Assembly: GCA_030390025.1 (NCBI GenBank)
Contig: CM059431.1
Coordinates: 131,008,001 to 131,072,000 of the forward strand
Direction of reading: 5' to 3'
DNA from: Squalus acanthias
Taxonomy: Eukaryota
DNA: 64,000 nucleotides
The position numbers and the translations under genes were made by a program. The notes beneath the pieces are model-generated. The model did not search any database. It saw nothing but the letters and a program-made list of their open reading frames with translations, and was not told the DNA's origin. This document shows, piece by piece, positions 5,450 to 64,000 of this stretch (positions are counted from its first letter, which is position 1; every line of letters starts with the position of its first letter).

Positions 5450-5886
5450 GGGGGAAAAATTCAGTTGGTTGCACCTCCCGTTAGCGCCTTAAGAGGGCGC
5501 TAATGGGGCGCAAAGCAACTAGCGCCCGGGCGCGGCAATGTTTGCGCCGCTTGCGAAATTAACTAGACATTTTGTGGCGGCGCTAAACACTACCGCCACG
5601 ATCTCCTGCGCCGGCAGATCGTGACATCAGCCGAGTGCGCAACGCCTCGGTAGCGCCCCAGAGTGGATATTGAGTGGTGCCCCCTGCCTTACCGCCTGCC
5701 GCTAGCAACAACAGGTTGAGGGGAGCATTTTGCAGTCAGGAAGGGACTGGGGGAGCGCTATTTAAGGGCGACCGCTTCCTGCATTTTTTTGTTGGTGACA
5801 TTTTTGAACCACGCATTCTGAGAGAGAGAGAGAGAGACTTCTGGAGAGATTCAACGCTGTGTGAAGGAGTTTTGTGTACTGAGCAG
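5450..5886 (+). mobile_element. Harbinger MITE family A, left half
   Basis: Starts with TIR gggggaaaaattc after TAT and aligns with the complete copy at 31119-32010. Interrupted after gagcag by an LTR. Confidence 0.92.
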
Positions 5887-6594
5887 TGTAGGGGGTGGTG
5901 GTTTGTGTCAGCTTCGCCTCTGATTTCTGAGCGGTTCGAATCGCTCCCACTCCCTTGGTTCTAGACCTTGGACTTATTTGGGGGTTGTGACAAAAAGTGC
6001 AGCAGACAACTGGTTTTGATGCAAGAACTTTGATCTTTATTCAAGAAAGTAAAACACAACACAAACACTCTTTACACTCTAAAAGTGGGGAACACTTCGG
6101 TACAAGCGAGGGAAATAACATTAGAAGAATACTTCACCCCTCCCAATCCCACTTCACTAGCTAGGTTGGACTCCAGAGGACCAGGGATGATACTCACCAG
6201 AATCCTTGACAGTTGGGTTAGTTCGCGGTTTTGGGGTTCACTCTATATGTTGGTTGGTGTCTGCCGTACCCCGTACGTGGTAGAGGACTTCAACTGCGTA
6301 TCTGGTCAGTCTTCGCGAGTCCGCTGATGCGGTAGGGTGCGTATTGGATCTATCAGGTGAGTACCCAGTTTTCTTTGGTTTAGAAGTAGGGTTTAGAGTT
6401 TTTTAGGGAAAATCTTACCCAGGGGTAAGTCAGGAGTAGATTGTAGAGTGGAAACTTTGCGGATCTTCGGTTTTTCTTCGAGTTGGTTTTCTTTGGTCGC
6501 GGTGGCCCAATATTGGTACTTGGCGTTCGGTTAGTTGGTTTCGTGAGGGCCTTGTTGCCGCGAGGTGTCCGATGGTCACTGAGGCGGTCGTTCA
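5887..6594 (-). mobile_element. Distal 708 bp of provirus LTR (family B)
   Basis: Reverse complement of 59456-60162 with about 15 substitutions counted by eye. Ends ...ccctaCA and abuts MITE sequence rather than gag, so it is a 3' LTR end. Confidence 0.95.
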
Positions 6595-7670
6595 GAAGCA
6601 GAGTCACTCACCGCAGAATACCCAGCCTCTGACCTGCTCTTGTCGCCACAGTATTTATCTGGCTGGTCTAGATAAGTTTCGGCGATGGTAATGCTGTTGA
6701 ATGTCAAGGGGTGGTGTTACTTGGAGGGAAACTTGGAGGTGGTGGTGTTCCCAAGCATCTGCTGCCCTTGTCCTTCTAGGTGGTAGAGTCGTGGGTTTGG
6801 GAGGTGCTGCCAAAGAAGCCTTGGCGAGTTGCTGCAGTGCCTCTTGTAGATGGTACACACTGCAGCCATGGTACACCGGTGGTGGAGGGGGTGAATGTTT
6901 AAGGTGGTGGATGGGGTGCCAATCAAGCGGGTTGCTTTGTCTTGGATGGTATCGAGCTTCTTGAGTGTGGTTGGAGCTGCACTCATCCAGGCAAGTGGAG
7001 AGTATTCCATCACACTCCTTACTTGTGCCTTGTAGATAGTGGAAAGGCTTTGGGGAGTCTGGAGGTGAGACACTTGCTGCAGAATACCCAGCCTGTGACC
7101 TGCTCTTGTTGCCACAATATTTATGTGGCTGATCCAGTTAAGTTTTTGGTCAATGGAGACACCCAGGATGTTGATGGTGGGGGATTCGGTGATGATAATG
7201 CCGTTGAATGTCAAGGGGCGGTGGTTAGATGCTCGCTTGTCGGAGATAGTCATTGCCTGGCACTTCTGTGGCACGAATGTTACCTGCCACTTATCAGCCC
7301 ATGCCTGAATGTCGTCCAGGTCTTGCTGCATGCGGGCATGGACTGCTTCATTATCTGAGGAGTTGTGAATGGCACTGAACACTATGCAGTCATCAGGGAA
7401 CATCCCCACTTCTGACCTTATGATAGAGGGAACGTCGTTGATGAAGCAGCTGAAGATGGTTGGGCCTAGGAACTCTGGCAGCCATGTCCTGGGGCTGTGA
7501 TGATTGACCTCCAACCACTACAACCATCTTCCTTTGTGCTAGGTATGACTCCAGCCAGTGGAGAGTTTTCCCCCCCGATTCCCATTGACTTCAGTTTTAC
7601 CAGGGCTCCTTGATGCCACACTCGTTCAAATACTGCTTTGATGTCAAGGGCAGTCACTGTCACCTCACCT
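6595..7670 (-). mobile_element. CR1-group LINE RT fragments (clade uncertain, Zenon-like)
   Basis: ALDIKAVF...LGPTIFSCFIND...DD...YKAQVRSVMEYSPLAW. The stretch 6600-6715 repeats 7070-7225. Confidence 0.85.
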
Positions 7671-10890: not shown

Positions 10891-11615
10891 TCACAGTTAT
10901 TATAGTCCGGAAATAATTGCCATCAATGTTATTCTACAAACACTTAATGCATTTATATCAAATTCTTTACTTTGCTATGTTTATCTAGGCTAAACCTGTT
11001 TATTTTAAGATGGTAAACACCTCCCATTTAAAATAAACAGATGAATGAATCCATTAGAATAGCAAACAGATGAATTTGATATGAACATGTTAAGAAACTT
11101 TGGGGGAAAAATTCAGTTGGTTGCGCCTCCCGTTAGCGCCTGTAGAGGGCGCTAATGGGGCGCAAAGCCGCTAGCGCCCGGGCGCAGCGATGTTTGCGCC
11201 GCTCGGGAACTTAACTAGACATTGTGCGGCGGCGCTAAACTTTACCGCCGCGACCACCTGCGCGCGCAGATTGTGACGTCATTCCATGGTGCAACGCCCT
11301 TGTGGCGCCCCGGAGCGGAAATTGAGTGGCGCCCCCTGCCTTACCGCCTGGCGCATCCAATGACCGGAAGACTGGAACACTATCAATCGCTGTGGGGCTG
11401 GGGGGGGGCGCTATTTAAAGGGGGCCTCTTCCTGTCTTTTTCTGTGGTTGACATTTTTGCACCACTCGTTCTGAGAGAGAGAGAGAGAGATTCGGAGAGA
11501 GAGAAAGAGAGACTTCTGCATTGAGTCAACGCTGTGTGAGGTAGTTTTGCCTACTGATCCTAACTTCGCTGGTACTTTGGTTGCTGTCCTTCATAACTTG
11601 GCTTGCAAAGGGACT

Positions 11616-12775
11616 ATGGGGGCTGCACTGATTGGGTCGTCGTCCTGCTCCAGCTGAATCGGAGGACACAGAGACGCAGAGAGAGAGTGGCAATGATGGC
11701 CAGACGGAGGAGGGCCAACAGGCGTATGTACAGGAGAGCTTACCCTCCCAGGTTATATCGTGAACAGCTCTCCTACATTCATATGTCTGAGGAGCTGTGT
11801 TTGCGAAGGCTGCGATTCAGCAAGGAGGTGGTCACTGAGCTCTGCCACCTGCTGCAGCCAGATCTGCAGCCTCAACTGAGGTCCAGGACGTCTCTGTCGG
11901 TGGCAGTGAAGGTCACAGTGGCTCTGAACTTCTATGCTACTGGCTCATTTCAAGCTGCTGCTGGGGACCTCGCCAATATCTCCCAGTTCGCGGTGCATTG
12001 CTGCATCCGGCAGGTCACAAATGCCCTCTTTAAAAGGAGACGACAGTTCATCTCTTTCCCCATGACCCCAGACAAGCAGCGTGACCGCGCTCTGGGCTTT
12101 GCGAGGATAGCGGGCTTCCCCATGGTGCAGGGCGCCATTGACTGCACGCATGTGGCTTTGCGTGCTCCACATGAGAATGCCGAGGAATTCCGGAACAGAA
12201 AGGGGTTCCATTCCTTGAATGTTCAGTTGGTCTGTGACCACAGACAGCTGATACTCGCTGTCAATGCCCACTATCCTGGCAGCTGCCACGATGCTTTCAT
12301 CCTGCGCCAGACTACTGTGGCAGAACTTTTCGAGGCACCGCATGAGCCAGTTGGTTGGCTTCTCGGGGACAAGGGGTATCCATTGAGCACCTGGCTGATG
12401 ACACCGCTCCGTACACCCAACACCCCTGCTGAGCTGCGGTACAACGAGAGCCATCAAGCTACCAGGAACATCATTGAGCGCACAATCGGCGTGCTGAAGC
12501 AACGGTTCCGCTGTCTCGACCATTCTGGAGGAGCCCTGCAGTACTCGCCTGAGCGAGTATCCAACTTCGTAGTTGTGTGCTGCATGTTGCATAACATGGC
12601 AATCGTCAGGACCCAGCCAATGCCACCAGGCCTTGGAGCACCACCAGAGGAGGAGGAGGAAGAGGAGGAAGAGGACGAGGAGGATGATCATCAGCAGCAC
12701 CAAGGCGGGAGGGCGGCCCACAATGGTGAAACTGCAAGGGCCGTCCGTCAACGGCTGATAGCAAGCCGCTTCTAG
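11616..12775 (+). CDS. Harbinger DDE transposase (HARBI1-like); apparent 1-nt frameshift after codon 7
   Basis: [27 protein letters not shown] and ERTIGVLKQRF are all intact, with an acidic tail. The ATG at 11616 (MGAALIG) is one base out of frame with the long ORF. Confidence 0.93.
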
Positions 12776-13087
12776 GGCCCCTGCTGTGGAAATGGCTTCT
12801 GCCATTGCTAACAACATCAATGAACCCAGCACGCAACCCCTAAGCCGGCCAAGGCACCAATGATTCCAAGCACCAAACATGTATATTTTGAATACAAAAA
12901 CTTATTTATTTTACAAACTCTGTGTGTGTCATTTCCTCATGACAAACTCATAGAAATAAACACAAAAAAACAGTCATTAACATAACTGGTTCTCACAACC
13001 TGGAGATAATGTCCAAAACACTAGACAAAAGTTGGACCACGAACCTCGGCCTTTAATAAAAAAATGACCAGCATTTTGTCACACCTC

Positions 13088-15123
13088 CTACTTTTTGCCC
13101 TTCGAGGGTGATCTCCTTCCCTTGCGCACTTCCCCCCTTCTAACCCGACTGCTCCTCCGTAATGGGACCTCAGTGGCTGCAGCAAGGCTGGTGGAAGGCT
13201 GCAGATTGTCAGACCCTGACACTGCAGATGCCCCTGAAGGACGGCCTCGACCAGTTCTGGGCCTGGAGGGCCCGGCTGCAGACAACACCAACTCTGCATG
13301 GGCGGCAGCAGTCTGTCCTACAGGCGGTGGCAAGTGCAGTGGAGAAGTGACAGTGTTGGCAGCAGGAATGCTGTCATCGTGAGAGAGGACAGCAACTCCC
13401 TGCTCGCCCGACACACTGGCACTCCCACGGGGCAGCACTTCAGCATCCGGAGCAATCTGCTGGAGCACAGATTGCTGGCCTGCTGCGGCGCGGTGAGAGC
13501 CCCGGGGACATGTGAACGAACCATCGAGGTTGGCAGCAGTCAGTGCTCGCGTGGCCTCAATCTGAGTCTGCATGAGAGCAGTCATAGATGGGATCACGGC
13601 AGTCAGTGACTGAATTGCAGCACTAAGCTTTAGTGTGGCATCCGCCTGTGCTACAGCGAAGTGCTCCACACTCCTTGCCAGTGACTCAATGCATTCGGGC
13701 ACCCTTCCCACTGCACCCATGAGCTCAGTGTGCATGCCCACCGCCTGGGTGTTCATTTCTGCGATCAGCCGCTCCTCCTCTGCGTCCATTGCAGTAGGAG
13801 TCGCTGGCATACTCTCCCTCTGGGGAGAAGGCCCCCGTTCTTCCCTACCCCCATGGCGTTGCTGCAGCCCGCTGGGTCCTGGAGCTTCACCCTCATCAGA
13901 CCCTTCCCCCCTGCTCCCCTCCAGGGAAGGCGTGTTCCCAGTGTGGGCATGGGCTTCCTCGGGAGAGGGTGGCACTGATGCTCCGGCTTCCTCTTCCTCC
14001 TCGGCTGCAGCTTCACTCCCACTGGCAGCTTCAGGGCCCGTCTCCTCAGCTGGTGAATCACCATCTGAAAGCAGGGAGGTACAAGAGTGGCTTTAGCGTG
14101 AGGACAGGGTGGCAGTAAGGGAGGAATAAGTGCAGCGAGTTAGCAAGTTGGATTGAAAGTGTCAAAGGCTGGTGTTGTGAGGGACAAGTGGAAGGACAGA
14201 GGACAAAAAGGTGATGACCTTACCATTGCTGTCCAGAATGGGGTCGGCGTCTCCAGTGGCGACGGGACCGATCACCCGGCTTGCCACAATCCTGTGGACG
14301 CGCTCCTCAAGATCGCTGAGGGGTTGCAGCTGAGGCCGCCCTCCACCTGTCCATTGCTGCTGTCTCCTATTATGCGCCAGCTTGGCCTGCAAGTAAAAGG
14401 ACAGCATCTGAGTAAATATACAGCCATGGTCTTGCCTGATGTGCCTCCCATAGCTGAATAGCCCTTACTGTATGCAGCCATGGTCTTGCCTGATGTGCCT
14501 CCCATAGGTGAATAGCCCTTACTGTATGCAGCCATGGTCTTGCCTGATGTGCCTCCCATAGCTGAATAGCCCTTACTGTATGCAGCCATGGTCTTGCCTG
14601 ATGTGCCTCCCATAGGTGAATAGCCCTTACTGTATGCAGCCATGGTCTTGCCTGATGTGCCTCCCATAGGTGAATAGCCCTTACTGTATGCAGCCATGGT
14701 CTTGCCTGATGTGCCTCCCATAGGTGAATAGCCCTTACTGTATGCAAAGTGTGGAATGTGTGTGTGTGTTTCATGAAAGGGCCATAGGTGTTGGATGAGT
14801 GTTGTGCATTGGGGTTTTAAGACCCTCTGGCCATAGAGTGAGGTTGAGATGGAGGGATGGAGAGGTATTGAGAAAAAGCCACTCACCCTGACGACCCGAG
14901 TGAGGTCGTTGAACTTTTTGCGGCATTGAACATGGGTCCTGGGCACCATGCTCCTGGAGGAGACGCTCTGAGCCACCTCCCTCCACACTCTTCTGTACTC
15001 GCGTGGCAAAGGCCTCCTGCCACTCTCAGGGAAGAGTATAGATCTTCTGCGCTCCACCGCGCCAACCAGAGCATCCAAGGCCCGCTCGGTGAAGCGCTGA
15101 GCTCGTTCTCTCACCCTCTCCAT
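13088..15123 (-). CDS. Harbinger Myb/SANT-like (trihelix) DNA-binding partner, 3 exons, ~458 aa
   Basis: Exons 15123-14887, 14386-14224 and 14064-13088 have GT-AG borders and splice in frame (phases 0 and 1). Motifs RFTERALDALV...W.EVA..V...QCRKKFNDL and TGGG. Confidence 0.88.
14421..14744. repeat. 54-bp minisatellite x6 in Myb intron 1
   Basis: Unit cagccatggtcttgcctgatgtgcctcccatag[c/g]tgaatagcccttactgtatg at 14421, 14475, 14529, 14583, 14637 and 14691. Confidence 0.97.
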
Positions 15124-16312
15124 CCTTGGCAGCAAAATGGATTCACAGGTCTCTCCAGGCCGAGATTCAAGGCTGCAATGAGCAGGGTGTGGCTGGGGAG
15201 CAAGTTGGCCCTCCCGCTTTAAGAACCGGCCGGCGCCAGTGTGTCTGTGTTCCCTCGCTAACTGGCAGCACCTGCGCTGCGCTCGCGCGCTGAGTTAGCA
15301 CCTCACTGCTCGGCCTTTGCGCCTTAAGACAGGTGTGCAGCGCCTGATTTAGCGCTCCACTCACCTCCCGGGGCGGTAAAAGTGAAGTTTCCAGTCAGTG
15401 GCGATAATTAGCGCCAGGCGCTAATTTTTGCGTCCAGATGATATTTGCGCCCCAAACGGGGCGCGATCTAATTTTTCCCCCTTTGTGTACAGGATAATTA
15501 GAGAACATCCATTCTCCAGATTGAATTGGATTCTCTCCTCCAGCAGAAATACAGGAGTCAGTGATTCAGAAGCAATTCCAGGCTTACAGCGCTCACTCAA
15601 AGCAATTTAGGAACTGTTGTTAGTTACTTGATTCCTATGGTGGAAAAATCCAAGGCAAATGGATGAATATGCAGTGGATACCAAGAGGAAGGATGTGTTT
15701 ACCCAGCACTGCTACCACCTTGCAAGCAAGTAGCCCAGGGGCAGATTAAGGGTCATTCCATGCAATTTACCCAGAGGTTTCTTGGGCATTTCTCAATTAG
15801 ATTCTAACTGGCAGCATATGCCAGTCTGTTGCACGGAGCAATACTCAAAGAAACACTAAACATTACTCTCCAAATTAAACTGAAACACGCAATGATGCAT
15901 TGCGCATATCAGTCCTGGCACCTGATGTTATGAAACCTACACCGTGGCCTCCCCCCTCATAATTTTGCACATTTTCACAAGTGTGCTGAGCTTGTGGTTT
16001 CCCCAGAACTAATCAAGCTAGGCTGGGCCCTTTTGATGTGTGGACAATGCATATCATTCCAAGAATGAAGAAGACCCTATCAGGTCGGCAATCTATCTTT
16101 ATTTCCAGTGCCGTGATTTTGGCAATACATCAACAGTCAAGTGAGGAGCGTATGCCATCCACGTTCCATGGCCGTCGTGTAAATAGTGTCCAAACCATTC
16201 TGGCCTAATCTAAATCTGATTTGAATGCATCTCCCAGGTGGGGGTGGGGGTGGGGGTGGGGGTGGAGCAAAGAGTGAGTGGGTTTGAGAGCGGGTGGGTG
16301 GTTAAATGCGCT

Positions 16313-31118: not shown

Positions 31119-32010
31119 GGGGGAGAAATTCGGTATCGCCTCGTTTGGGGCGCAATTATCAGCTGGGCGCAAAGTTTAGCACCTGGCGCTAATTATCACC
31201 TCTGACTGCAAACTTGGCTTCTATCGCCCCTGGAGGTGATTGGAGCGCTAAATCAGGTGCTTCACACCTCTCTTAAGGCGCTAACGCCGAGGAGCGAGGC
31301 GCTACCTCAGAGCGCTGACGAAGCTCATGTGATGTCAGTCAGCAATGGAACACAGACACACTGGCGCTAGCCAGTTCTTAAAGGGGAGAGTCAATCTTGC
31401 TCTCCATCCACCCCCTGCTCATTGCAGCCTTGAATCTTGGCCTGGAGAGACCTGTACATCAAATCTGCTGGAAAGAACAATGGAGAAGCCCAGGGAAAAA
31501 GCTCAGAGTGCAGCCCCCCAAGTCTCTTCTAAATCGATGCAAGGAAGGTCAAATCAAAATGAACCTGCAAAGTGCTGCTCAGTACCCAAAACTCATTCAC
31601 ACAGCGTTGAATCTCTCCAGAAGTCTCTCTCTCTCTCTCAGAATGCGTGGTGCAAAAATGTCGCCGACAAAAAAAGGCAGGAAGCGGTCGCCTTTAAATA
31701 GCGCTCCCCCAGTCCCTTCCTGACTGCAAAACGCTCCCCTCAACCTGTTGTTGCTAGCGGCAGGCGGTAAGGCAGGGGGCGCCACTCAATATCCGGTCCG
31801 GGGCGCTACCGGGGCATTGCACGCTTGACTGACGTCACGATCTGCGGGCACAGGAGATCGTGGCGGTAGTGTTTAGCGCTGCCACAAAATGTCTGGTCAA
31901 TTTCGCGAGCGGTGCAAAGATCGCCGCGCCCGGGCGCTAGTTGCTTTGCGCCCCATTAGCGCCCTCTTAGGGTGCTAACGGGAGGCGCAAAGCAACCAAA
32001 TTTTTCCCCC
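31119..32010 (-). mobile_element. Complete Harbinger MITE family A (892 bp)
   Basis: TIR gggggagaaatt / aatttttccccc, TSD CTT. Both arms are homologous to the ends of H1. Confidence 0.94.
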
Positions 32011-40479: not shown

Positions 40480-40823
40480 TCATGGACTGCAGCAGTGCAA
40501 AGAGTAGTCTGACCATCACCTTCTCAAGGCAACTAGGAATGTGGCCTTACCAGTGTTGTCCATTTTTTATAAAAAACCTCAAATGTTCTTTGGTTTGCTG
40601 CTACACACGTTGATAGTTGTGTTTTCCCTCCAAATATTTTGACTGAAATTCAGCCTACTTTTTTCTCTCTCTCTCTCTCTGTTTCATTTAGAAAAATTCC
40701 CTGAAGGTATAGTTCTGCATATGGACTAAGCAAGAGCGTAATTTATGTCATCCCAAATCCTGGATGCTCAAGAGCAGTTCTGGGAAATGATGTAGACTGA
40801 GAAGATCTTCTGATAGAAACAAA

Positions 40824-50424: not shown

Positions 50425-53400
50425 GGGGGAAAAATTCAGTTGCTTTGTGCCTCCCATTAGCACACTAAGAGGGCGCTTATGGGGCACAAAGCAACTAGTG
50501 ACCGGGCACGGCGATGTTTGCGCCACTCGCGAAATTGACCAGACATTTTGCGGCGGCGCTAAATACTACCGCCACGATCTCCTGCGCCCGCAGATCATAA
50601 GAACATAAGAAGATAAGAAATAGGAGCAGGAGTATGCCATTCGGCCCTTCGAGCCTGCTCCGCCATTCAGTGAGATCATGGCTGATCTTCTGCCTCAACT
50701 CCATTCACCGGCCCTATCGCCATATCCCTTGAGGCCCTTACTAGTCAGAAATCTATCGACTTCTGTTTTGAATATACCCAATGACTGAGCCTCCACAGCC
50801 CTCTGGGGTAGAGAATTCCAAAGATTCACCACCCTCTGTGTGAAGAAATTTCTTCTCATCTCAGTCCTGAATGGCCCACCCTTTACCTTGAGGCTGTGGC
50901 CCCTAGTTCTAGACTCCCCAGCTAAGGGAAACATTTTCCCAGCATCCATCCTATCAAGCCCTGTAATAATTTTGTATGCTTCAATGAGATCCCCTCTCAT
51001 TCTTCTGAATTCAAGAGAATACAGGCCTAGTTTACTCAATCACTTCTCATATGACAGTCCCGCCATCCCAGGAATCAATCTTGTGAACCATCGTTGCACT
51101 CCCTCTATGGCAAGTATATCCTTCCTTAGATAAGGAGACCAAAATTGTACACAGTACTCCAGGTGTGGTCTCACCAAGACCCTATATAATTGGAGTAAAA
51201 CTTCTTTACTCCTGTACTCAAATCCTCTTGTAATGAAGGCCAGCATACCATTTGCCTTCCTAATGGTTTGCTGCACCTGCACATTCACTTTCAGTGACTC
51301 ATGTACAAGGACACCCAGGTCCCTTTGAGTATCTGCATTCCCCAATCTTTCACCATTTAGGAAATACTCTGCCTTTTTGTTTTTTCTACCAAAGTGGATA
51401 ACTTCACATTTATCCACATTATATTTCATCTGCCATGTTCTCGCCCACTCACTGAGCCTGTCGAGATCCCCTTGAAGCCTCTTCACATCCTCTTCGCAAC
51501 TGACACTGCCACCTAGCTTTGTATCATCAGCAAATTTGGAAATGTTACATTTAGTCCCCTCATTCAAATCATTGATATAGATTGTGAATAGCTGGGGCCC
51601 AAGAACCGATCCTTGCGGTACCCCACTAGTCACAGCCTGCCATCCTGAAAAAACCCGTTTATCCCTACTCTTTGTTTTCTGTCTGTTAACCAATTCTCAA
51701 TCCATGCTAGTATATTACCCCCAATTCCATGTGCCCTAATTTTGTTCACCAACCTCTTATGTGGGACCTTATTGAAGGCCTTCTGAAAATCCAGATAAAC
51801 CACATCTACTGGTTCCCCTTTATCTACTCCACTAGTTATATCCTCAAAGAACTCCAATAGTTTTGTCAAACAGAATTTCCCTTTCATAAATCCATGTTGA
51901 CTCTGCCCAATCTTACTATTAGTTTCTAAGTGCCCAGTTATTGCATCCTTTATAATAGATTCCAGCATTTTCCCAACTACTGATGTGAGGCTAACAGGTT
52001 TGTAGTTCCCCGTTTTCTCTCTCCCTCCTTTCTTAAATAGCGGGGTTACATTTGCTATCCTCCAATCTGCAGGAACTGTTCCAGAATCTACAGAATTTTG
52101 GAAGATGACAACCAATGCGTCCACTATTCCAATGGCCACCTCTTTCAAAACACTAGGATGTAGGTCATCCAGTCCTTGGGATTGATCGACTTTTAGTCCC
52201 ATTAATTTTGCTAGTACTGTTAGTACTGCTAGGGCAGTGACTAGTGGGGTACCGCAGGGATCGGTCCTAGGTCCCCAGCTATTCACAATATATATTAATG
52301 ATCTAGACGAGGGTATTGGATGTAATATCTCCAAGTTTGCAGATGACACAAAGCTGCGTGGGAGTGTGTGCCATGAGGAGGATGCCGAGAAACTCCAGTA
52401 TGATTTGGATAGGTTGGGTGATTGGGCAGAAGCATGGCAGATGCAATATAATGTGGATAAATGCGAGGTTATCCACTTTGGTGGCAAAAACAGGAAGGCA
52501 GATTATTATCTGAATGGCAATAGATTGGGAGAAGGGGAAGTGCAACAAGACCTGGGTGTCCTTGTGCACCAGTCGCTGAAGGTAAGCATGCAGGTGCAGC
52601 AGGCGGTTAAGAAGGCAAATGGTATGTTGGCCTTCGTAGCGAAAGGGTTCGAGTACAGGAACAAGGATGTCTTGCTGCAGTTGTACAGGGCCTTGGTGAG
52701 ACCACATCTTGAGTATTGTGTGCAGTTTTGGTCGCCTTATCTGAGGAAGGATGTTCTTGCCATGGAGGGAGTGCATCGAAGATTCACCAGGCTGATACCT
52801 GGGATGGCAGGAATGACGTATGAGGAGAGAGTGGGTCGATTGGGCTTATACTCGCTGGAGTTTAGAAGAATGAGAGGGGATCTCATTGAAACTTATAAAA
52901 TTATAGAAACATAGCAGATAGGAGCAGGAGTAGGCCATTCGGCCCCTCGAGCCTGCTCCACCATTCGATGAGGTCATGGCTGATCATCCAAACTCAGTAC
53001 CCTGTACCTGCCTTCTCCCCATATCCCTTGATACCTTTAGCTTTAAGAAATATATCTAACTCATTCTTGAATATATTTAATGACTTGACCTCAACTACCT
53101 TCTGTGGTAGAGAATTCCACAGGTTCACCACTCTCTGGGTGAAGAAATTCTTCCTCATTTCTGTCCTAAATTGCTTACCCCTTATCCTTAGATTATGACC
53201 CCTGGTTCTGGACTCTCCGACCATCGGGAACATTCTTCCTGCATCTAGTTTGTCCAGACCTGTCAGAATTTTATATGTTTTGATGAGATCCCCTCTCATT
53301 CTTCTATACTCCAGCGAGTATAAGCCCAATCGACCCAATCTCTCCTCATATGTCATTCCTGCCATCCCAGGTATCAGCCTTGTGAATCTTCGCTGAACTC

Positions 53401-56400
53401 CTTCCATGGCAAGAACATCCTTCCTCAGATAAGGCGACCAAAACTGCACACAGTACTCAAGGTGTGGTCTCACCAAGGCCCTGTACAACTGCAGCAGGAC
53501 ATCCCTGTTCCTATACTCAAACCCTTTCGCTATGAAGGCCAACATACCATTTGCCTTCTTCACCGCCTGCTGCACCTGCATGCTTACCTTCAGCGACTGG
53601 TGTACAAGGACACCCAGGTTTCGTTGCACTTCCCCTTCTCCCAATCTATTGCCATTCAGATAATAGTCTGCCTTTCTGTTTTTGACACCAAAGTGGATAA
53701 CCTCGCATTTATCCATGTTATATTGCATCTGCCACGCTTCTGCCCACTCACCCAACCTATCCAAATCATCTTGGAGTTTCTCGGTATCCTCCTCGCAGCA
53801 CACACGCCCACCCAGCTTTGTGTCATCTGCAAACTTGGAGATATTACATTTATTTCCCTTATCTAGATCATTAATGTATATTGTGAATAGCTGGGGTCCA
53901 AGGACCGATCCCTGCGGTACCCCACCCCACTAGTCACTGCCTGCCACTCGGAAAAAGATCCATTAATTCCTACTCTCTGCTTTCTGTCCGCCAACCAGTT
54001 CTCTATCCAAGTCAATACCTTGCCCCCAATCCCATGTGCCTTAACTTTACACGCTAATCTCTTATGCGGGACCTTATCGAAAGCCTTTTGAAAGTCCAAA
54101 TACACCACAACTACTGGTTCTCCCTTATCTATTTTCCCAGTTCCATCCTCAAAAAATTCCAGTAGATTAGTCAAGCACGATTTACCTTTTGTAAATCCAT
54201 GTTGACTTTGTCCGATCCTGTCACTGTTTTTCAAGTGCTCAGCTATTACATCCTTTATAATGGACTCTAGCATTTTCCCCACTACCGATGTCAGGCTTAC
54301 CGGTCTGTAATTCCCCACTTTCTCTCTACCACCCTTTTTGAATAGTGGGGTAACATTAGCTACCCTCCAATCCATGGGTACAGTTCCAGATTCCATCGAA
54401 TGTTGGAAGATGATCAGCAATGGATCTACTATTTCTAGGGCCACTTCCTTAAGTACCCTAGGATGTAGATTATCAGGCCCTGGGGATTTATCGGCCTTCA
54501 ATCCCATCAATTTCCCTAACACCATTTCCCTGCAAATACTGATTTCTTTCAGTTCCTCCCTTTCATCAGACCCTATGTTCTCCAACATCTCTGGGAGGTT
54601 ATTTGTGTCCTCCTTTGTGAAGACAGAACCAAAATATGCATTTAATTGGTCTGCCATTTCTTTGTTCCCCATTATAACTTCCCCCGCTTCTGACTGCAAG
54701 GGACCTACACTTGATTTCACTAATCTTTTTCTCTTCACATATCTATAAAAGCTCTTACAGTCAGTTTTTATGTTCCCTGCAAGCTTACTTTCATATTCTA
54801 TTTTCCCCTTCTTAATTAATCCCTTTGTCCTAATTCTAACAGGACTAGACAGACTAGATGCAGGAAGGATGTTCCCGATAGTCGGGGAGTCCAGAACCAG
54901 GGGTCACAGTCTAAGGATAAGGGGTAAGCCATTTAGGACTGTGATGAGGAGGAATTTCTTCACCCAGAGAGTGGTGAACCTGTGGAATTCTCTACCACAG
55001 AAGGCAGTAGAGGCCAATTCATTAAATATATTCAAGAACGAGTTAGATATATTTCTTAAAGCTAAAGGGATCAAGGGATATGGGGAGAAGGCAGGGACAG
55101 GGTACTGAATTTGGATGATCAGCCATGATCTCATTGAATGGCGGAGCAGGCTCGAGGGGCTGAATGGCCTACTCTTGCTCCTATCTTCTATATTTCTATG
55201 TTTCTATGTTTTTTACGAATAATAATTTCTTTAAGTTCCTCATTCTCGTCACACCCTTGGGTTTCTCGTATTTCTGGGAGGTTTTTTGTGTCTTCCTCCG
55301 TGAAGACAGAAACAAAGTAATTATTTAATTTCTTGGCCATTTCCTCATTCCCCATTATAAATTCTCCTGTCTCTGACTGTAAAGGACCTACATTTACCTT
55401 CGCCAGTCTTTTCCTTTTCACATACCTATAGAAGCTTTTACAATCCATTTTTATATTTTTCGCTAGTTTGTGCTCATATTCCATTTTCCCTATCTTTATC
55501 AATTTCTTGGTCCCCCTTTGCTAATTTCTAAAAAGACCGCATTTTCTGGCAACTTTATAAGCTTCCTCCTTTGACTTAATACTAGCTTTAATTTTTTTTG
55601 TAAACCATGTTTGGATCACTTTTCCTTTTGGGTTTTTATGCCCTAGAGGAACATATGTTTGTTGCAAATTATGCATTATTTCCTTGAATGTTAGCCATTG
55701 TATGTCCACATGCATACCTTTTAGTGTAGTCTCCCAATTTACCATGGCCAACTTGTCCCTCATACCCTTGTCGTTTCCTCTGTTTAGATTGAAGACCTTA
55801 GTTTCAGATTGGACTACATCACTCTGAAACTTAATGTAAAATTCAATCATATTATGGTCACTTATCTCTAAAGGCCCCTTTACCACAAGATTATTGATTA
55901 GCCCTTTCTCATTACAGAGTACCAGATCCAGAATAGCCTCTTCCCTGGTTGGTTCCTCCACATACTGATCCAGGATACCATCTCGCATGCATTCCAAGAA
56001 TTCGTCCTCCACACCATTAGTGGTAATTTGATTTGCCCAGTCAATATGTAGATTAAAGTCCCCCGTGATTACCGTATTGCCCTTGTTACATGCTCTTCTA
56101 ATCTCTTGATTGATACTGTGCCCTACATTACCATTACTGTTTGGTGGCCTATACACAACTCCCACCAATGTTTTCCGCCCTTTGCTGTTTCTTAGCTCTA
56201 CCCAAACCGATTCCAGTTCTACATCACGATCTGCCAAGCCAAGATCTTTTATCTCATCCCTTATTAACAGTGCTATGCCACCTCCTTTTCCTTTTTGTCT
56301 GTTCTTCCTAAATGTTGAGTACCCTGGAACATTCAGTTCCCAGCTTTGGTTACCCTGCAACCATGTCTCTGTAATGGCAATTACATCATACCCATTTACT

Positions 56401-58028
56401 TCTATTAGTGCCATTAATTCATCCACCTTGTTGCAACTGCTACGTTCATTTAGATAAAGTGCCTTCAACTTTGCCTGTTTCATATTTTTCTGCACTTTGA
56501 CCCTCTTTATTGTTGGCCTTTGTTTCTGCTCCCTACTAGTTTTGCTGGCTACTTTTCTAACTTGCACTTCCAGCTTTGTTTCTCTCCATTCTGGGCCCAC
56601 ACTTAGGTTCCCAGCCCCCTGACAAACTAGTTTAAATCCTTCCCAACAGCACTAGTAAACCCCCCTGTGAGGATGTTGGTCCCGTTTCTGCCGAGGTGTA
56701 ACCCGTCCAGCTTGTACAGGTCCTACCTTCCCCAGAATCGGTCCCAATGCCTCAGGAATTTAAATCCCTCTCTCCTACACCATCTCTCCAGCCACGCATT
56801 CATCTGGTCTATTCTCCTATTTCTGCTCTCGCTACCACGTGGCACTGGGAGCAATCCTGAGATTACTACCTTTGAGGTACTGCTTTTTAATTTATTTCAT
56901 AGCTCCCTATATTCTGCTTGCAGGACCTCGTCCCTCTTTCTACCTATGTCGTTGGTACTGATATGGATCTGGCTGTTGACCCTCCCCCTTCAGAATGTCC
57001 TGCAGCCGCTCAGTGACATCCTTGACCTTGGCACCAGGGAGGCAACATACCATCCTGGAGTCACGTCTGCGGCCACAGAAACGTCTATCTGTTCCCCTTA
57101 CGATAGAATCCTCTATCACTATTGCTCTCCCACTCTTTTTCCTCCCCTCCTGTGCAGCTGAGCCACTCGTAGTGCCACGGACTGGGCTCTTGCTGCATTC
57201 CCCTGAGAAACCATCTCCCCCAGCAGTATCCAAAAATGAAATCTGTTGGAGAGGGAGATCGACCCAGGGGACTACTGCACTACCTTCCTAGTTCTTTTAC
57301 TCTGTCTGGTGGTCACCCATTCCCTGTGCAACGCCCCGGTAGCGTCCCGGACCGGATATTGAGTGGCGCCCCCTGCCTTACCGCCTGCCGCTAGCAACGA
57401 CAGGTTGAGGGGAGCGCTTTGCAGTCGGGAATGGACTGGGGGAGCGCTATTTAAAGGTGACCACTTCCTGCCTTTTTTTGTCGGTGACATTTTTGCACCA
57501 CGCATTCTGAGAGAGAGAGAGAGAGACTTCTGGAGAGATTCAACGCTGTGTGAAGGAGTTTTGGGTACTGAGCAGCACTTTGCAGGTTCATTTTGATTTG
57601 ACCTTCCTTGCATCGATTTAGAAGACTATGGGGGCAGCCATCTGAGCTCTTTCCCTGGGCCTCTCCATTGTTCTTTCCAGCAGATTTGATGTACAGGTCT
57701 CTCCAGGCCGAGATTCAAGGCTGCAATGAGCAGGGTGTGGATGGAGAGCAAGATCAACCCTCCCTTTAAGAACTGGCTGAGGCCATTGTGTCTGTGTTCC
57801 ATTGCTGACTGACATCACCTGAGCTTCGCCAGCGCTCTGAGGTAGCGCCTCGATCCTCGGCGTTAGCCACTTAAGAGAGGTGTGTAGCGCCTGATTTAGC
57901 GCTCCAAGCACCTCCAGCGGCGATAAAAGTCAAGTTTGCAGTCGGAGGCGATAATGAGCGCCAGGCACTAAACTTTGCGCCCGGCCGATAATTGCGCCCC
58001 AAACGGGGTGATACCGAATTTCTCCCCC
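50425..58028 (+). mobile_element. MITE family A split by nested CR1s (halves 50425-50596 and 57326-58028)
   Basis: TIRs at both ends with TSD AAT inside a CR1 (50308-50424 / 58029-58215). The halves join with ~16 bp lost. Confidence 0.92.
50597..57325 (-). mobile_element. Near full-length CR1 (ORF1 SGNH esterase, APE, RT) containing two nested CR1s
   Basis: Outer copy 50597-~52215 plus ~55213-57325 (AIVIEDSIVRG, AITETW, FADD). Plus-strand copy ~52230-52902 plus 54831-55212. Innermost minus copy ~52903-54830. Confidence 0.9.
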
Positions 58029-58227: not shown

Positions 58228-58685
58228 GGGGGGAAAATTCAGTATCACCCCGTTTGGGGTGCAATTATCGACCGGGCGCAAAGATTAGCGCCTGGCAGTA
58301 ATTATCGTCTCCGACTGCAAACTTGACTTTTATCGCCCCTGGAGGTGATTGGAGCGCTAAATCAGGCGCTTCACACCTCTCTTAAGGTGCAAAGGCCGAG
58401 GAGCGAGGCGCTACCTCAGAGCGCTGGCGAAGCTCATGTGATGTCAGTCAGCAATGGAACACAAACACTGGCGCCGGCCAGTTCTTAAAGGGGAGGGTTG
58501 ATCTTGCTTTCCATCCACATCCTGCTCATTGCAGCCTTGAATCTCGGCCTGGAGAGACCTGTACATCAAATCTGCTGGAAAGAACAATGGAGAGAACCAG
58601 GGAAAGAGCTCAGAGTGCAACCCCCACAGTCTCTTCTAAATCGATACAAGGAAGGGCAAATCAAAATGAACCTGCAAAGTGCTGC
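58228..58685 (-). mobile_element. MITE family A, right half (partner of 5450-5886)
   Basis: TIR follows ATA and the sequence stops at ...aaagtgctgc, the position where the left half stops, with gcag duplicated. Confidence 0.92.
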
Positions 58686-60162
58686 TGTAAGATTCTCAAA
58701 ATTCACAGATCCCCCAAAACTCAAAGACGAACCCTAAGGAAAAAGACTTTGGACTCTTTTCTAACTATTACAGGGTGGTGAAGTGCATGGGGCCTAAGCG
58801 AAGGACATTTTGAAGATTTGGTATTTTAAAAGACATGTCTAGGCTTGTACGGGAGAAAAGGCTGTGAAGGAAGGTGGGATCAAACTCTGTAAAAACAGTT
58901 TGGGTATTGGAGTTAATGGAAACTGTCTGGGGAACCGCATGACCTCGCTGGGAGTTAAATCGGCCCCTATCAGACATTAACATCTTACAATAAACCCGAG
59001 GAAAAGTACTCTCCCCCCCAATTTACAGAGCCCATTAAAAACATGCATAAAACAGATCACTTCGGCCTACTCTATAGAAATCCTAGGCCCAGTCAAGAAA
59101 CCCAAAACTTGAGGACTATCAACTACGATTAAGCGGCAAATCGACAGGATGAAGCCATCCCGAAACCACTTCACACCTTAACAAACAAGTTGCCGTTAAC
59201 GAGCCCGCCAAAATCTAACAATGACCGAGATCTGATTTGGCGCGCAGATAAGGAAGCTTCAAGTAGTATAATTGAAGGCCCATTCTCAACCTGAAAAAGA
59301 AGAAGAGGAAGGAAGAACAACAAGACATCCACGGAGGCATTCTTCGCAACACAGTTTCTCCAGCACCACCGTTTAGCGTTCCGTGTCCAGCCAGGAGGTC
59401 GACAGCTCGAAGGCCAGACTATCCAACAAAGTAGGCCGACACGTGGAAGAAACCAGAACGACTGCCTCAGTGACCATCGGACACCTCGCGGCAACAAGGT
59501 CCTCACGAAACCAACTAACCGAACACCAAGTACCAATATTGGGCCACCGCGACCAAAGAAAACCAACTCGAAGAAAAACCGAAGATCTGCAAAGTTTCCA
59601 CTCTACAATCTACTCCTGACTTACCCCTGGGTAAGATTTTCCCTAAAAAGCTCTAAACCCTACTTCTAAACCAAAGAAAACTGGGTACTCACCTGATAGA
59701 TCCAATACGCACCCTACCGCATCAGCATACTCGCGAAGACTGACCAGATACGCAGTTGAAGTCCTCTACCTCGTACGGGGTATGGCAGACACCAACCAAC
59801 ATATAGCGCGAACCCCAAAACCGCGAACTAGCCCAACTGTCAAGGATTCTGGTGAGTATCATCCCTGGTCCTCTGGAGTCCAACCTAGCTAGTGAAGTGG
59901 GATTGGGAGGGGTGAAGTATTCTTCTAATGTTATTTCCCTCGCTTGTACCGAAGTGTTCCCCACTTTTAGAGTGTAAAGAGTGTTTGTGTTGTGTTTTAC
60001 TTTCTTGAATAAAGATCAAAGTTCTTGCATCAAAACCAGTTGTCTGCTGCACTTTTTGTCACAACCCCCAAATAAGTCCAAGGTCTAGAACCAAGGGTGT
60101 GGGAGTGATTCGAACCGCTCAGAAGTCAGAGGCGAAGCTGACACAAACCACCACCCCCTACA
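58686..60162 (+). mobile_element. 5' LTR (family B, 1477 bp) of the provirus
   Basis: TGtaag...ccctaCA termini, aataaa at ~60008, immediately followed by gag. Confidence 0.92.
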
Positions 60163-60178
60163 AAAGGGATGTGATGCA

Positions 60179-61953
60179 GTGGAAACTGTTTTTGAGGAGA
60201 GAACCAAGATGGAAGAGAGGATTTCCTCATATGTGTTTGAGAAAGTGAACATAACCAAGAAATGGGTACTTAGTCTGTTGCGTGCTGAGCGTCCAATAGA
60301 CGCTGCAGCTAAATGGACTGAGAGCAAGGACCACAAGAAATCTGTGGAAAAGGCCAGCTGGTTGATCTGCTCCCAGCGACAGATCCAGCTGTTAGACAAA
60401 CGTGTTGAGGCACTTAAGGCAGAGCTGCAGGAGTCTGCTCAGCTGTCTCAAGCAAGGGCCCTAGCAGGGGAAACATTACTGAATGAACTAACCACCCGAA
60501 ATCAGGCAAAAATGCAGCTAGTGGGAACGCATAGAAACAGGCAAGAATATTTTCAGTGTCAGGTCACCGAAGCTAAAACCAGTGAACTGGTGTTACGGGA
60601 AGAGAACGCCCGCCTGGCCAAACAAGTAAGAGAGCAGGAGGGGAGGTTGAGACACGTCCAGGCAGCTTACAAGATAGCAAGCACTAGGGTGTATGAGGCG
60701 GGAGATCACGGCCCCTGCCAGAAACAAATCGAGAGTTTGAACCTTGCTCTGTCCAGGGCGAAAGGCATGGTATGCCTACTAAGCCCGGGTGCGGCCCGGG
60801 TGGACCTAGAGGGGCAGGGGGAAACTGTTCGGATGCCACCTGTGGTGCCGGGCAATGACCCGGTCTGGCAGCAGGAGGGACGGGCGATTTGTGAGGCTGG
60901 CAGGGAGTGCACACCACCACCTGTGGCGTCGGGTTTTGACTCGGTTTGGCAGCAGGGAGGGGAGGGCGAACCAATGTAGGAAAGGTCGGAGCCGGGGCCG
61001 ATGTGCCCGGTCCAGCAGCAAAAGTTTGGCCTGCCCGGGGGTGGTGGGGGTCAAGGACCCCTTGAAAGCCAATTCGTGGCTCCCCATGGCACCCAACAGC
61101 TTAGGGTTATGATAAGCCACCTGGGCAAGCTCACCCAAAAGGGGGACTCCTCGGTCCACTTCATGGAAGTGGAACAGGCAGCGGGCATCAACGACTGCGA
61201 TGATGCGATGGCAAAAATGCTCCTGTTCTCCCTAGATAGCAAAATCTACCAGTCCCTCTCCGCAGAGAGTAAAAGAGGGCAGGGTGGATACGCCGCTATC
61301 CGGGAGGGAGTTCTGGAGGCGATGGGAATGAATGATGGTAGTTCCTTCTCCGGGTGGAAAAGACAACCCAGCTAGTAGGGGAGACCCCACAGGCTTTCGT
61401 AGACCGACTGTGACCTGTGTACAGGAGTGCCTGTAATGGGGCTCTCGACCAGGCTCACCTGAATCAGGATGAGCTGGCCCACTGGCTCCGAAGTCTAGTG
61501 GCAAACAGCTTGCCACGGATCAGGGCCAAGGCTGAGCTGTGGTTTGACCCGAAAGACCCCCGGGTCACCGAGGAGACAGTGGTCAAACAACTGACCCTGG
61601 CTTACCGGAACGGTAGAGGGACAGAAGAGCACCCACCTAAGGGAAAGGTACACAAAATAAAGCCTAGTAAGAAGAAAGAGTGGCACCAGGAAGGGGGTAA
61701 CCCTTCCGACACGAAGCGTAACTGCTTCGGGTGCGGGAAGAGTGGGCATTGGAGAAAAGACTGTAGGAATCCGTGGAAGGATAACATAGGGAAGAACTCC
61801 CCAACTCCTGCCCCAAGCACCGAAGCACCGACCTCTTCCCCCACGTTAGACTCGGTCATGGCTGCGAGCCGAGCTCTAGTAAACGGCCCAGGGAAAGTAG
61901 CCACCGCCACTGGTGCTTTCATCCCATCTGCCCCCCCTAACGCAGACTTATGA
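60179..61953 (+). pseudogene. gag: gag (frameshifted) with CCHC zinc knuckle
   Basis: Three consecutive ORF pieces: coiled-coil-like N-terminus, capsid-like middle and CFGCGKSGHWRKDC. Confidence 0.85.
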
Positions 61954-64000
61954 CTGGAGCCAGCGCAGCCTGTCTACCTGTGTCCCCTGGAGTACGATGC
62001 ATGGAAGAGACCACTCGTTAGGATGGAGGTGGAGAAGGTGAAAGGGACTTATCTGTTAGATACTGGAGCTTCCAGCACCATAGTCTATTCAGCCAACCCC
62101 GCCGCCTCACCTCTGTCTAACTGGGGTCCCGTACAGCTTAGTGGGGTTTACAGGTAACGAGCAGACTGGCTCATTCTCCATCCCGCTGTCCATTCATTTA
62201 GGAACACTCCACACCAAGTGGACCTGTGTCCTGATGAAATGGGAGTGGGAAGGGACGGGGATCCTGGGGGCCGACTTTATCACAGGCCACAGGATTCTAG
62301 TGGATCTTAGGAACCACTGTCTGTGGGGAGCATGTACTGGCAGAGAAAGTGAAGTGGCAGTCATCCCAGGGAAACAGGGCAAGGGGACCTTGTGCACCCG
62401 AAAACCAAAGGAAGGTTACAACCTCGAAGAAATGGTCGGTAACACTCCGATGGCCTACCAGGCATTTGTGCGAGCACACCTCGCAGCATTTGCCACTCAC
62501 AAGCACGACTGTGGGAGGGTAAACGGGGTCGAGGTTAGTGTCAGCGGGGGCCCCATGACCTGACCACAGAAGCAATACAATTTCCCCAGGGAGGCGGAAG
62601 CAGACATAGAAAAGGCTATGGCTTCTTTAGTAACACAGGGGGTATTGAGACCGATAGTCACCCACGTAAACTCTCCACTGTGGCCGGTTAGAAAACCGGA
62701 CAACTCCTGGAGGGCCACAGTGGACTATCGGGTACTCAACCGCAACATCCCCGCCTGTGCACCCACGGTAGCAGCCGTCGCCGACCTCATCGGAAGTATC
62801 CCAGCATCTGCGACCACTTTCACAGTGCTGGACATTTCCAACGGGTTTTGGTCCATCCTTTTACGAAGAGAGGACCAGTACAAGTTCGCCTTCACTTTTA
62901 AAGGCCAACAGTACACCTGGAACTGCCTACCTCAGGGCTTCCACAACAGCCCGAGCATTTTTCACCAATGCATGGTGAATTGTTTGAAGGGCTTCAGCCA
63001 GCCCCGGCAGTTGGTACAGTATGTGGATGACCTACTCCTGTTCACCGATGAGGGAGAGGAACACGGTCCACTACTGGCTGAACTGCTGGAGCTGCTCCCG
63101 CAAGAAGGCTTCAAAGTGAACCCAAAGAAGGTACAGATCGGCCAACAGGAAGTAAAATTCCTAGGGCTAACTGTGCGCGCTGGGGAAAGGGCCATCGACA
63201 AAGCTAGGAGGGAAGCAGTGCAGGAGTTACCAGCCCCCAACACAGTCACAGGAGTGAGATCCTTTCTAGGGCTAACCGGGTACTGCAGAGATTTCATTGA
63301 GGATTACGCAGCCACCGCAGCCGCTCTGCTCCGACTCCTACATAAGGGTGTAGAGTGGGCCTGGGACGAGAGTTGCGAGGCAGCATTTCCCAAGTTAAAA
63401 AAAGATCTGCAGACCGCGCCGGCTCCAGGAGCCATTGATGGGGAGAGGGAGTTTTTCCCGGAGGTGGCAGCCAGTGGGGACAGTCTGAGTGCCGTGCTGC
63501 TCCAAGACAGGCATGACCGGCTGAGACCGGTGGTTTACTCCTCCAGGATACTCACCGATGTGGAGAAGGGCTATTCCAACTGTGAGAGGCACCTCCTTGC
63601 CACTCACTGGGCTGTGAAAAGATTATTGATCTTCACAGGCACGTCTCCCATCACCCTCCTCACCCATCACACGCTCACCCAGATGCTCCTAGATGGGAGA
63701 ATCAAAGACGGGACAGTGAGCAGTGCCCGTATTGGTCGCTTGAACCCTGCTTCTCTCCCAGATGGACCTAAGGGTGAAAGGTCTCTGCGAGCCGAAGCTC
63801 GCAGCCAACATGATCTACCCAGGGACTGCCCACTGCTGTTCCATTGAAGGGGTATGGGAAGTCAACATAGGTTTTCGGGCCGGGATACACCCCACAGGCC
63901 GCAAAATCTATGTGGACGGTTCGAGCACAGTATCTGCTGGCGAGCGACTCACCGGGTGTGGAGTTTATGACCAGGAGGCAGTCATTGCCCTGGCAATCAA
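61954..64000 (+). pseudogene. pol: pol: protease, RT, degenerate RNase H (tether) and start of a second RNase H; runs off the window
   Basis: YLLDTGAS; NSPLWPVRK, LDISNGFW, LPQGFHNSP, YVDD; tether EVAAS...RPVVYSSR...CERHLLA; then KIYVDGSS at ~63903. Frameshifts near 62125 and 63740, stop at 62561. Confidence 0.92.

Follow-up and report, generated by a model that had tools for sequence, protein, structure and literature searches.

Organization of the provirus

The window, a stretch of 64,000 nucleotides of Squalus acanthias DNA, ends inside a retrovirus-like element, whose parts are listed below together with the host repeat that precedes them.

58228..58685, forward strand: left arm of a Harbinger MITE, corresponding to 1-460 in the intact MITE copy (892 bp) and 90.7% identical to it; outer flank ATA
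58682..58685, forward strand: 5' copy of the target-site duplication CTGC, from comparison of the junction with empty-site MITE copies
58686..60162, forward strand: 5' LTR of 1,477 bp with TG...CA ends (TGTA...TACA); AATAAA at 60008-60013
60163..60208, forward strand: 46-nt leader between 5' LTR and gag, without a primer-binding site
60209..61953, forward strand: gag, broken, with a coiled-coil-like N-terminal part, a capsid-like middle and one CCHC knuckle at 61723-61764
61951..61956, forward strand: gag stop TGA (context TGA CTG) with the protease in frame after it, a predicted stop-codon readthrough junction
61954..62563, forward strand: aspartic protease and linker, with DTGAS at 62059-62073, ILGADF at 62261-62278 and the linker motif HKHDCG at 62498-62515
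62564..63361, forward strand: reverse transcriptase (RT) and thumb, Pfam core 62687-63175, with LPQGFHNSP at 62927-62953 and YVDD at 63020-63031
63362..63790, forward strand: tether, a degenerate first RNase H, with EVAAS at 63461-63475, CERHLLA at 63581-63601 and LTHH at 63659-63670
63903..64000, forward strand: start of a second RNase H, with KIYVDGSS at 63903-63926, cut off by the window end

The start of the LTR is set by the host repeat and its end by a second LTR copy at 5887-6593, and the resulting boundaries confirm the length of 1477 bp and the 4-bp target-site duplication given in a preliminary description of this DNA. The duplication, CTGC, becomes legible only when the evidence of two sites is combined: positions 58682-58685 precede the LTR and positions 5883-5886 follow the inverted LTR piece, with a pair of host-repeat copies that carry no insertion as references. 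The same description had recognized no canonical TGG primer-binding site, and indeed none follows the 5' LTR; the primer site of snakehead retrovirus (SnRV), with up to three mismatches allowed, has no match in the 64-kb window, and no tRNA genes were found within it. In SnRV the TGG stands one base past the LTR end, and gag begins about 250 nt further on. The alignment of one contig with this copy starts at 60161; upstream of that point stand 46 letters that do not match. The leader was probably shortened by a deletion, whereby the primer-binding site was lost in this copy; its absence is thus likely a matter of decay, with the one contig pointing to a deletion, and not a trait of the family. 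Such a small deletion would leave the copy no longer reverse-transcribable.

The gag gene carries premature stops at 60977 and 61411 and a frameshift near 61350-61375. Its zinc knuckle matches Pfam zf-CCHC with an E-value of 6e-4, marginally short of the curated cut-off, and the motifs QQLR, VL.AMG and FDP, compared by eye, are common to the Gag of the whale-shark element rh_ty_ERV2. In a pairwise comparison with SnRV Gag the similarity was limited to the zinc knuckle, and an ESM Atlas search with two Gag pieces returned nothing usable. No stable RNA structure was seen in the 110-nt stretch that starts at the gag stop (z -0.02), and no readthrough stimulator was found there. UGA junctions between gag and pol are known in three fish/frog retroviruses, and in SnRV the two genes likewise share one frame with a stop between them. 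By established retrovirus biology, an active element would make Gag and, through readthrough of the TGA-C stop, Gag-Pol.

The protease and linker are broken by a frameshift near 62120-62155 and a premature stop at 62561. The RT gives a Pfam match to RVT_1 (7.6e-34), followed by RT_RNaseH_2 (4.4e-18); among solved structures it matches MLV-type and foamy RTs best, with Ty3 behind. The LPQGFxNSP signature of the preliminary description is present, as is the RNase H devoid of catalytic aspartates that it had noticed from EVAAS and LTHH: the catalytic columns of the tether read A/H/H here, compared with D/E/D in 24 of 25 Gypsy rows, so that all three catalytic residues are lost. A frameshift near 63740 interrupts the tether, and KIYVDGSS downstream is therefore in another frame. 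The window ends about 33 residues into the second RNase H, ahead of the integrase, any env and the presumed second breakpoint of this copy, and the last 85 amino acids taken alone have no Pfam match. They are, however, 80% identical (68/85) to residues 575-659 of a relative, P0001 (84% identical), which runs on into a full RNase_H (2.4e-18) and an integrase, in agreement with the expectation that the VDGS segment would continue into an RNase H fold. In an active element, as established retrovirus biology would have it, the second RNase H would serve RNA removal and the tether would be a structural connector. An exact look-up of four window open reading frames in the protein collection found none of them (0/4).

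Placement among the retroviruses

The element shows several features of canonical Retroviridae, namely the LTR-gag-pro-pol order, the TG...CA LTR, a short target-site duplication, the tether with a second RNase H, and an RT that falls within the canonical clade. The last of these was obtained with support of 100/99 in each of the three RT builds, which comprised 64 rows with LG+G4, 40 rows with a mixture model, and 36 rows of RT and tether. In the tether tree P0001 groups with the canonical rows (97/93, 98/98). The RT is about 51-53% identical to those of relatives from frog, coelacanth and similar hosts and 44% to that of SnRV, and the nearest named relative comes from the shark Heptranchias perlo (68% over 171 amino acids). 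A basal retroviral lineage had been proposed for the element; its deep position in the retrovirus tree agrees with this, yet the dual RNase H adduced for it is common to all retroviruses and is therefore no mark of a basal one.

The closest published counterparts are the endogenous retroviruses (ERVs) of clade Huo (Xu et al. 2018, PMC6001957), whose tree gives the clade Huo label to the tips ca_mi_ERV1, rh_ty_ERV2 and an_ro_ERV1, listed in the neighbourhood of SnRV. The elephant-shark ca_mi_ERV1 has HKHDCG, DISNGFWS and PQGFHNSP in common with the window element, and the eel an_ro_ERV1 was matched by eye to P0004, a member of the window's own clade. With these ERVs and with CmiERV lineage I (Han 2015, PMC4422223) the element shares RT and linker motifs, a single zinc knuckle and cartilaginous-fish hosts. 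The evidence for membership in clade Huo consists of these motifs, matched by eye, and of the tip-label order in the text of the published figure. That the lineage might be uncatalogued, as had been thought possible, is not supported, since the clade Huo tips include matching ERVs from shark and eel. The element is a distinct family: those published sequences that were compared, by eye only, include nothing close to it, and its nearest database relatives are 84% and 68% (Heptranchias perlo) identical. It adds one more decayed family to a group of retroviruses that sharks were known to carry.

SnRV itself, represented by a 10,688-nt record whose length agrees with PMC12193657 and whose RT agrees with the supplement of PMC7947760, resembles the element in its in-frame gag-stop-pol, coiled-coil-like Gag start, single CCHC knuckle, and tether followed by RNase H. 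It differs in its UAG-G junction (TGA-C here), in an LTR that is much shorter than the one here, in possessing a primer site that this copy lacks, and in a Gag that cannot be aligned; the integrase of the relative is distant from that of SnRV, and the trees contain no supported clade that unites the two. The in-frame gag-stop-pol and the single zinc knuckle also belong to the gamma- and epsilonretrovirus layout and are not diagnostic.

There is a possible, though less probable, alternative, in which the 'NYNRIN-like' ERVs of shark, frog, coelacanth and eel form a separate deep canonical lineage outside the clade of SnRV, and clade Huo is a grade. The window's own clade, which includes P0004 (97/96), excludes SnRV in all three builds (97/96 with 64 rows, 82/97 with 40 rows, 86/96 with RT and tether). 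SnRV and the window's group stand in an open basal polytomy in the 64-row and RT+tether builds, and in the 40-row build SnRV groups with other rows (92/88); an AU test of a clade joining the window's group to SnRV gave p 0.20, neither rejected nor supported. The remoteness of the relative's integrase from that of SnRV points the same way, and Chong et al. (2014, PMC4299795) likewise found the non-class-I/II retroviruses not to be monophyletic. Against a separate lineage, its members already stand beside SnRV in the published tree, and the gag-stop-pol layout, the single zinc knuckle and the H.[HN]DCG linker are all as in SnRV. The choice alters the label and leaves the biology unchanged. The ERV4 and ERV3/ERV-L groups (Chong et al. 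2014, Table 1) share the non-class-I/II tree position, but typically have 5-bp target-site duplications and no Gag zinc finger, whereas the window element has a 4-bp duplication and one zinc finger. The available part of the NYNRIN paper (PMC9447858) does not address the placement of these ERVs.

Insertion into a MITE and a probable later rearrangement

The second LTR copy lies near the other end of the window, on the reverse strand, next to the other half of a Harbinger MITE.

5450..5886, reverse strand: right MITE arm, MITE positions 457-892, 91.6% identical to the intact copy; outer flank ATA
5883..5886, reverse strand: 3' copy of the target-site duplication CTGC, from the junction compared with empty-site copies
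5887..6593, reverse strand: LTR remnant, the last 707 nt of the LTR (positions 771-1477), 97.9% identical
6594..6600, reverse strand: breakpoint of 7 nt that derive neither from the LTR remnant on one side nor from the LINE RT on the other, the latter cut mid-sequence (6601 to about 7670)
11102..15481, no strand assigned: full-length Harbinger-type transposon of the MITE's own family, with a DDE transposase and a Myb/SANT gene; flanks TTT/TTT
31119..32010, forward strand: intact empty-site MITE of 892 bp, which served as reference; flanks CTT/CTT

At the two LTR junctions stand the complementary halves of one Harbinger MITE (arms 1-460 and 457-892), and the junctions share both the 4-bp CTGC duplication and the outer 3-bp ATA duplication. 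The piece at 5887-6593 is most likely the remnant of the provirus's own 3' LTR, whose end was likely carried in inverted orientation to a place 52 kb away by a later rearrangement. The provirus would have inserted into the MITE, an active element of this kind being expected from established retrovirus biology to integrate with a 4-bp stagger, and an inversion with one breakpoint in its 3' LTR would later have cut it. A single rearrangement, with a non-homologous join at 6593/6601, may have turned at least 57 kb and left behind the LTR end and the right MITE arm. The inversion could be an assembly misjoin instead.

Both junctions fall on the identical base of one repeat family, which would also be expected if two independent insertions had occurred in a family of elements targeting one site in the Harbinger MITE. 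This is improbable, as the two insertions would each have to lack precisely the half that the other retains, and an ATA flank would have to be common to both MITE copies, while the four other flank triplets seen all differ, each of the three other paired elements having its own matching triplet (TTT, CTT, AAT). One rearrangement accounts for the complementary halves and the ATA flanks together, and the nested duplications then document, with unusual clarity, a rearrangement that spans at least 57 kb.

The element had been taken for a young one. The provirus is dead and old, not young, because it contains three premature stops and three frameshifts and its LTR differs from the second LTR piece at 15 of 707 nt (2.1% divergence). 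The breaks in gag, pro and pol went unmentioned in the preliminary description. We conclude with considerable confidence that the endogenous retrovirus at this locus is defunct, belongs to the canonical-retrovirus radiation and likely to the SnRV-related clade Huo, inserted in a Harbinger MITE and was likely later cut by an inversion through the 3' LTR.

Comparison with lokiretroviruses, Odin and Gypsy elements

Lokiretroviruses (PMC7947760), whose env resembles the mononegavirus F protein, and Odin retrotransposons (PMC9040795), which have a sea-anemone host and no env, also possess a tether and second RNase H, and the element had been called lokiretrovirus-like on first inspection. Its identification as a lokiretrovirus, or as a sister to Loki and Odin, would place these in a host class without earlier finds, as Wang and Han (2020) detected lokiretroviruses in none of three cartilaginous-fish genomes; this is very improbable. 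Raw similarity is high, in that P0001 scores 72-85 bits for the tether and 185-226 bits for the integrase against nine of ten Loki rows, compared with 33 and 124 bits for SnRV, and it also scores higher against Loki than against foamy or gamma/epsilon rows. Moreover, RIKDG at the tether end resembles the Loki RIRDG, and an AU test on RT alone (mixture model) did not reject a Loki/Odin placement (log-likelihood 24 lower, p 0.075). However, the RT signature is PQG, whereas the Loki and Odin RTs in the available parts of the published alignments have PFG. Loki and Odin form a separate clade (100/99) with the provirus outside it in every tree, P0001 stands outside the Loki+Odin integrase clade (100/99) in the integrase tree, in which CGIN1 was not among the rows, and the AU test on RT and tether (simpler model) rejected the Loki/Odin placement (p 0.0017). 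By eye, P0279 agrees with the Odin RT as published, and the window RT is outside Odin in the trees. The best RT identities are 38% among 15 Loki, 37% among 3 Odin and 34.5% among 25 Gypsy sequences. The lokiretrovirus reading was dropped on the signature, the RT trees and the RT+tether test. Neither the tether with second RNase H nor a 'NYNRIN-like' database label identifies lokiretroviruses; the PQG/PFG signature and the tree do.

A Gypsy element with an independently gained second RNase H, to which the match of the first RNase H fold with Pfam families of Gypsy RNase H might point, has virtually no chance of being correct and was rejected as the initial reading of a retrovirus and not an ordinary Gypsy had implied, given the solved-structure matches, the trees, the RT+tether AU test (p 0.0052) and an RNase H after RT without active D-E-D.

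As a more speculative and rather doubtful extension, the shark-frog-coelacanth-eel group may be among the deepest and slowest-changing canonical branches, keeping a Loki-type tether and integrase. If so, the Loki/CGIN1-type integrase would be the ancestral retroviral integrase, and among living sequences this group would come closest to a proxy for the canonical retrovirus ancestor. Wang and Han have proposed that this integrase is a replacement private to lokiretroviruses, and an ancestral origin would require revision of the published view of how domains were replaced in early retroviruses.

Relatives were absent from viral contigs among the 9 pattern matches of a protein search and the 23 of an alignment search, and the LTR end had no match in metagenome contigs, in which alignment gave six loci from 166 matches, all 26-30% identical and left out of the comparisons. 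The RNase H similarity scores are too low to inform placement, and the high raw similarity to Loki fits slow change in both groups.

Provirus structure and phylogenetic placement

The element at 58686-64000 of the spiny dogfish window is a retroviral provirus that runs off the window's end, and the window also holds an inverted piece matching the end of its LTR.

Features of the provirus
58686 (TGTA) to 60162 (TACA): 5' LTR, 1,477 bp
60209-61953: gag region downstream of the LTR, with a single CCHC knuckle
After gag: protease, motif DTGAS
RT, motifs LPQGFHNSP and YVDD, Pfam RVT_1 7.6e-34
After RT: RNase H-like domain (tether), Pfam RT_RNaseH_2 4.4e-18
63903: start of the second RNase H, KIYVDGSS; the window stops about 33 residues into the domain
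5887-6593, minus strand: second LTR piece, matching the last 707 nt of the LTR with 15 differences and no gaps

The preliminary description, which saw a young, lokiretrovirus-like or basal provirus, was accurate on LTR length and on the retroviral LPQGFxNSP signature. The tether was likewise correctly described as lacking catalytic residues: in a 106-row alignment, it carries A/H/H at the three columns where 24 of 25 Gypsy rows have D/E/D, and every retrovirus, Loki and Odin row is degenerate there. The segment proposed to open a second RNase H does so in P0001, an unnamed 84%-identical relative, where the domain is entire (Pfam RNase_H 2.4e-18) and an integrase is also present.

For the placement, 489 sequences were scored, 106 were aligned and three trees of 64, 40 and 36 rows were built, omitting near-duplicates and fragments. 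P0198 served to collect the Loki references, its RT agreeing by eye with the published Loki-Lro; P0279 and two kin represented Odin, and record L007 represented snakehead retrovirus (SnRV). Foamy and betaretrovirus references were unnamed IMG/VR pol stretches chosen by motif, and the gamma/epsilon, ERV-L-like and Gypsy labels were assigned here from motifs and source names. All three trees put the element inside canonical retroviruses with 100/99 support, and a second clade, also at 100/99, holds Loki+Odin. The retroviral part of the earlier interpretation is supported, the Loki/Odin affinity is not. Joining the window element and P0001 to Gypsy was rejected (AU p 0.0052, RT+tether, LG+G4); joining them to Loki+Odin gave p 0.075 with RT alone under a mixture model and p 0.0017 with RT+tether under LG+G4. 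P0001 also fell outside Loki+Odin in its tether and integrase trees.

Among canonical retroviruses, the element's own clade (97/96, 82/97, 86/96) also contains relatives from frog and coelacanth together with unnamed ones. It lies in a basal polytomy that includes SnRV, and a clade uniting the two is neither supported nor rejected (AU p 0.20). Deep branching in these trees should not be over-read, because the betaretroviruses, on a long branch, were placed inside gamma/epsilon. The nearest relative with a name, 68% identical over 171 aa, comes from Heptranchias perlo, in keeping with a cartilaginous-fish host.

On score, P0001's tether and integrase lie nearer to the Loki and Odin rows than to those of SnRV, foamy, gamma/epsilon or Gypsy. 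In the integrase tree, Loki+Odin is joined by 7 of 13 relatives with unstarred support of 85/75, and P0001 itself falls in the unresolved part. All this may reflect no more than slow change, but it leaves room for an ancestral integrase having been retained in the element's group. The Odin clade is made up of three unnamed ENA proteins: P0279, which by eye matches a published Odin RT, and P0281 and P0282, which may represent additional Odin families.

Published relatives

Wang and Han 2020 (PMC7947760) report lokiretroviruses in none of three cartilaginous fishes, and give PFG in Loki RTs, whereas the window element and SnRV have PQG. Clade Huo, as defined by Xu et al. 2018 (PMC6001957), is SnRV-related and found in all major vertebrate lineages. 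Three sequences of that study resemble our material by eye. P0004, which belongs to the element's clade, is matched by an_ro_ERV1 of an eel; the elephant-shark ca_mi_ERV1 has linker and RT motifs in common with the element, and the whale-shark rh_ty_ERV2 has Gag motifs in common with it. In the text of the paper's figure, read without its branches, all three names stand near SnRV in the part labelled clade Huo. An elephant-shark lineage likewise clusters with SnRV according to Han 2015 (PMC4422223). Among the freely accessible papers listed by searches on lokiretroviruses and on endogenous SnRV relatives in sharks, none describes the family in its title or abstract. The window element is a new, decayed member of a retrovirus type that is already known.

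A probable split insertion

The provirus lies in an 892-bp host MITE with Harbinger-type ends. MITE positions 1-460 adjoin the 5' LTR on the left and positions 457-892 adjoin the inverted LTR piece on the right; the four-base overlap, CTGC, occurs at both provirus junctions and once in each of two empty MITE copies, which bears out the 4-bp target duplication noted before. The outer flanks of both arms are ATA, and each of the three other paired elements in the window is flanked by a matching triplet of its own (TTT, CTT, AAT). The inverted piece starts at LTR position 771 and is joined, through seven bases that belong to neither side, to a LINE RT cut mid-sequence. The simplest reading of this arrangement is that a single provirus entered a single MITE and that an inversion spanning at least 57 kb later broke the 3' LTR, although a misjoin in the assembly would look the same. 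Two separate targeted insertions at the same MITE site would require complementary losses together with a chance match of the flanks.

Decay, age and abundance

The youth proposed earlier is not supported: the copy has premature stops at 60977, 61411 and 62561, frame changes near 61350-61375, 62120-62155 and 63740, and an LTR-to-LTR distance of 0.0216 (15/707; 95% interval 1.2-3.5%). Assuming that both pieces are the 5' and 3' LTRs of a single provirus, this corresponds to about 5 million years at the mammalian rate; the shark rate that Han 2015 assumes gives about 49 million years, and the pedigree rate of the epaulette shark (7e-10 per generation) gives about 15 million generations. The family is many-copied: 6,289, 11,843, 1,922 and 476 contigs at ≥85% identity were found in the four sequencing runs (4/4; 30/30 bins, two organisms), contig depth not being equivalent to copy number. 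P0001 is probably a damaged copy too, because K replaces, in its second RNase H, the catalytic E seen in all nine other relatives shown.

Predicted expression and replication

A TGA at 61951 closes the gag frame, and the protease continues in that frame (TGA CTG). Gag-Pol would likely be made by reading through this stop, since SnRV has this layout with UAG, and a review lists UGA at the junction in three further retroviruses of fish and frogs. Structure prediction returned no outstanding RNA structure downstream of the gag stop. Judged by its residues the tether cannot be catalytic, and the second RNase H, which preserves its D-E-D-D motifs in the relatives, would take over RNA removal.

As noted before, no TGG primer site follows the LTR; none occurs in the leader, only 46 nt from the LTR end to the first gag ATG, whereas SnRV has a primer site and a leader of about 250 nt. 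One contig aligns from 60161, at the LTR-terminal CA, and its 46 upstream letters fit nothing in the window, a single-contig hint that other copies have extra leader sequence, which the window copy lost at a short CA repeat. Within the LTR, GGTGAGT (59851-59857) resembles a splice donor, and the SnRV leader holds a similar motif.

Other features of the window

A full-length Harbinger-type transposon of the same family as the MITE occupies 11102-15481, with terminal repeats, TTT/TTT flanks, a DDE transposase reading frame open over 392 aa of the plus strand, a Myb/SANT gene on the minus strand and an internal 54-bp tandem array (14363-14794). Another MITE copy (50425-58028, flanks AAT/AAT), 200 nt from the provirus-bearing arm and in opposite orientation, has grown from about 0.9 to 7.6 kb because several CR1-like LINE fragments, some in each orientation, are nested in it. 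A decayed Myb/SANT-like Harbinger piece at 8200-8800 is, by eye from its translation, of a different family. The tandem array at 35490-36000 (37 overlapping copies in 9-, 12- and 15-nt steps) may be coding, or it may be a degenerate minisatellite. Between 16455-17789 and 39690-41525, about 23 kb apart, there are several long inverted repeat pairs of 90-96% identity, which point to a repeat family of recent origin or to duplication in inverted orientation.
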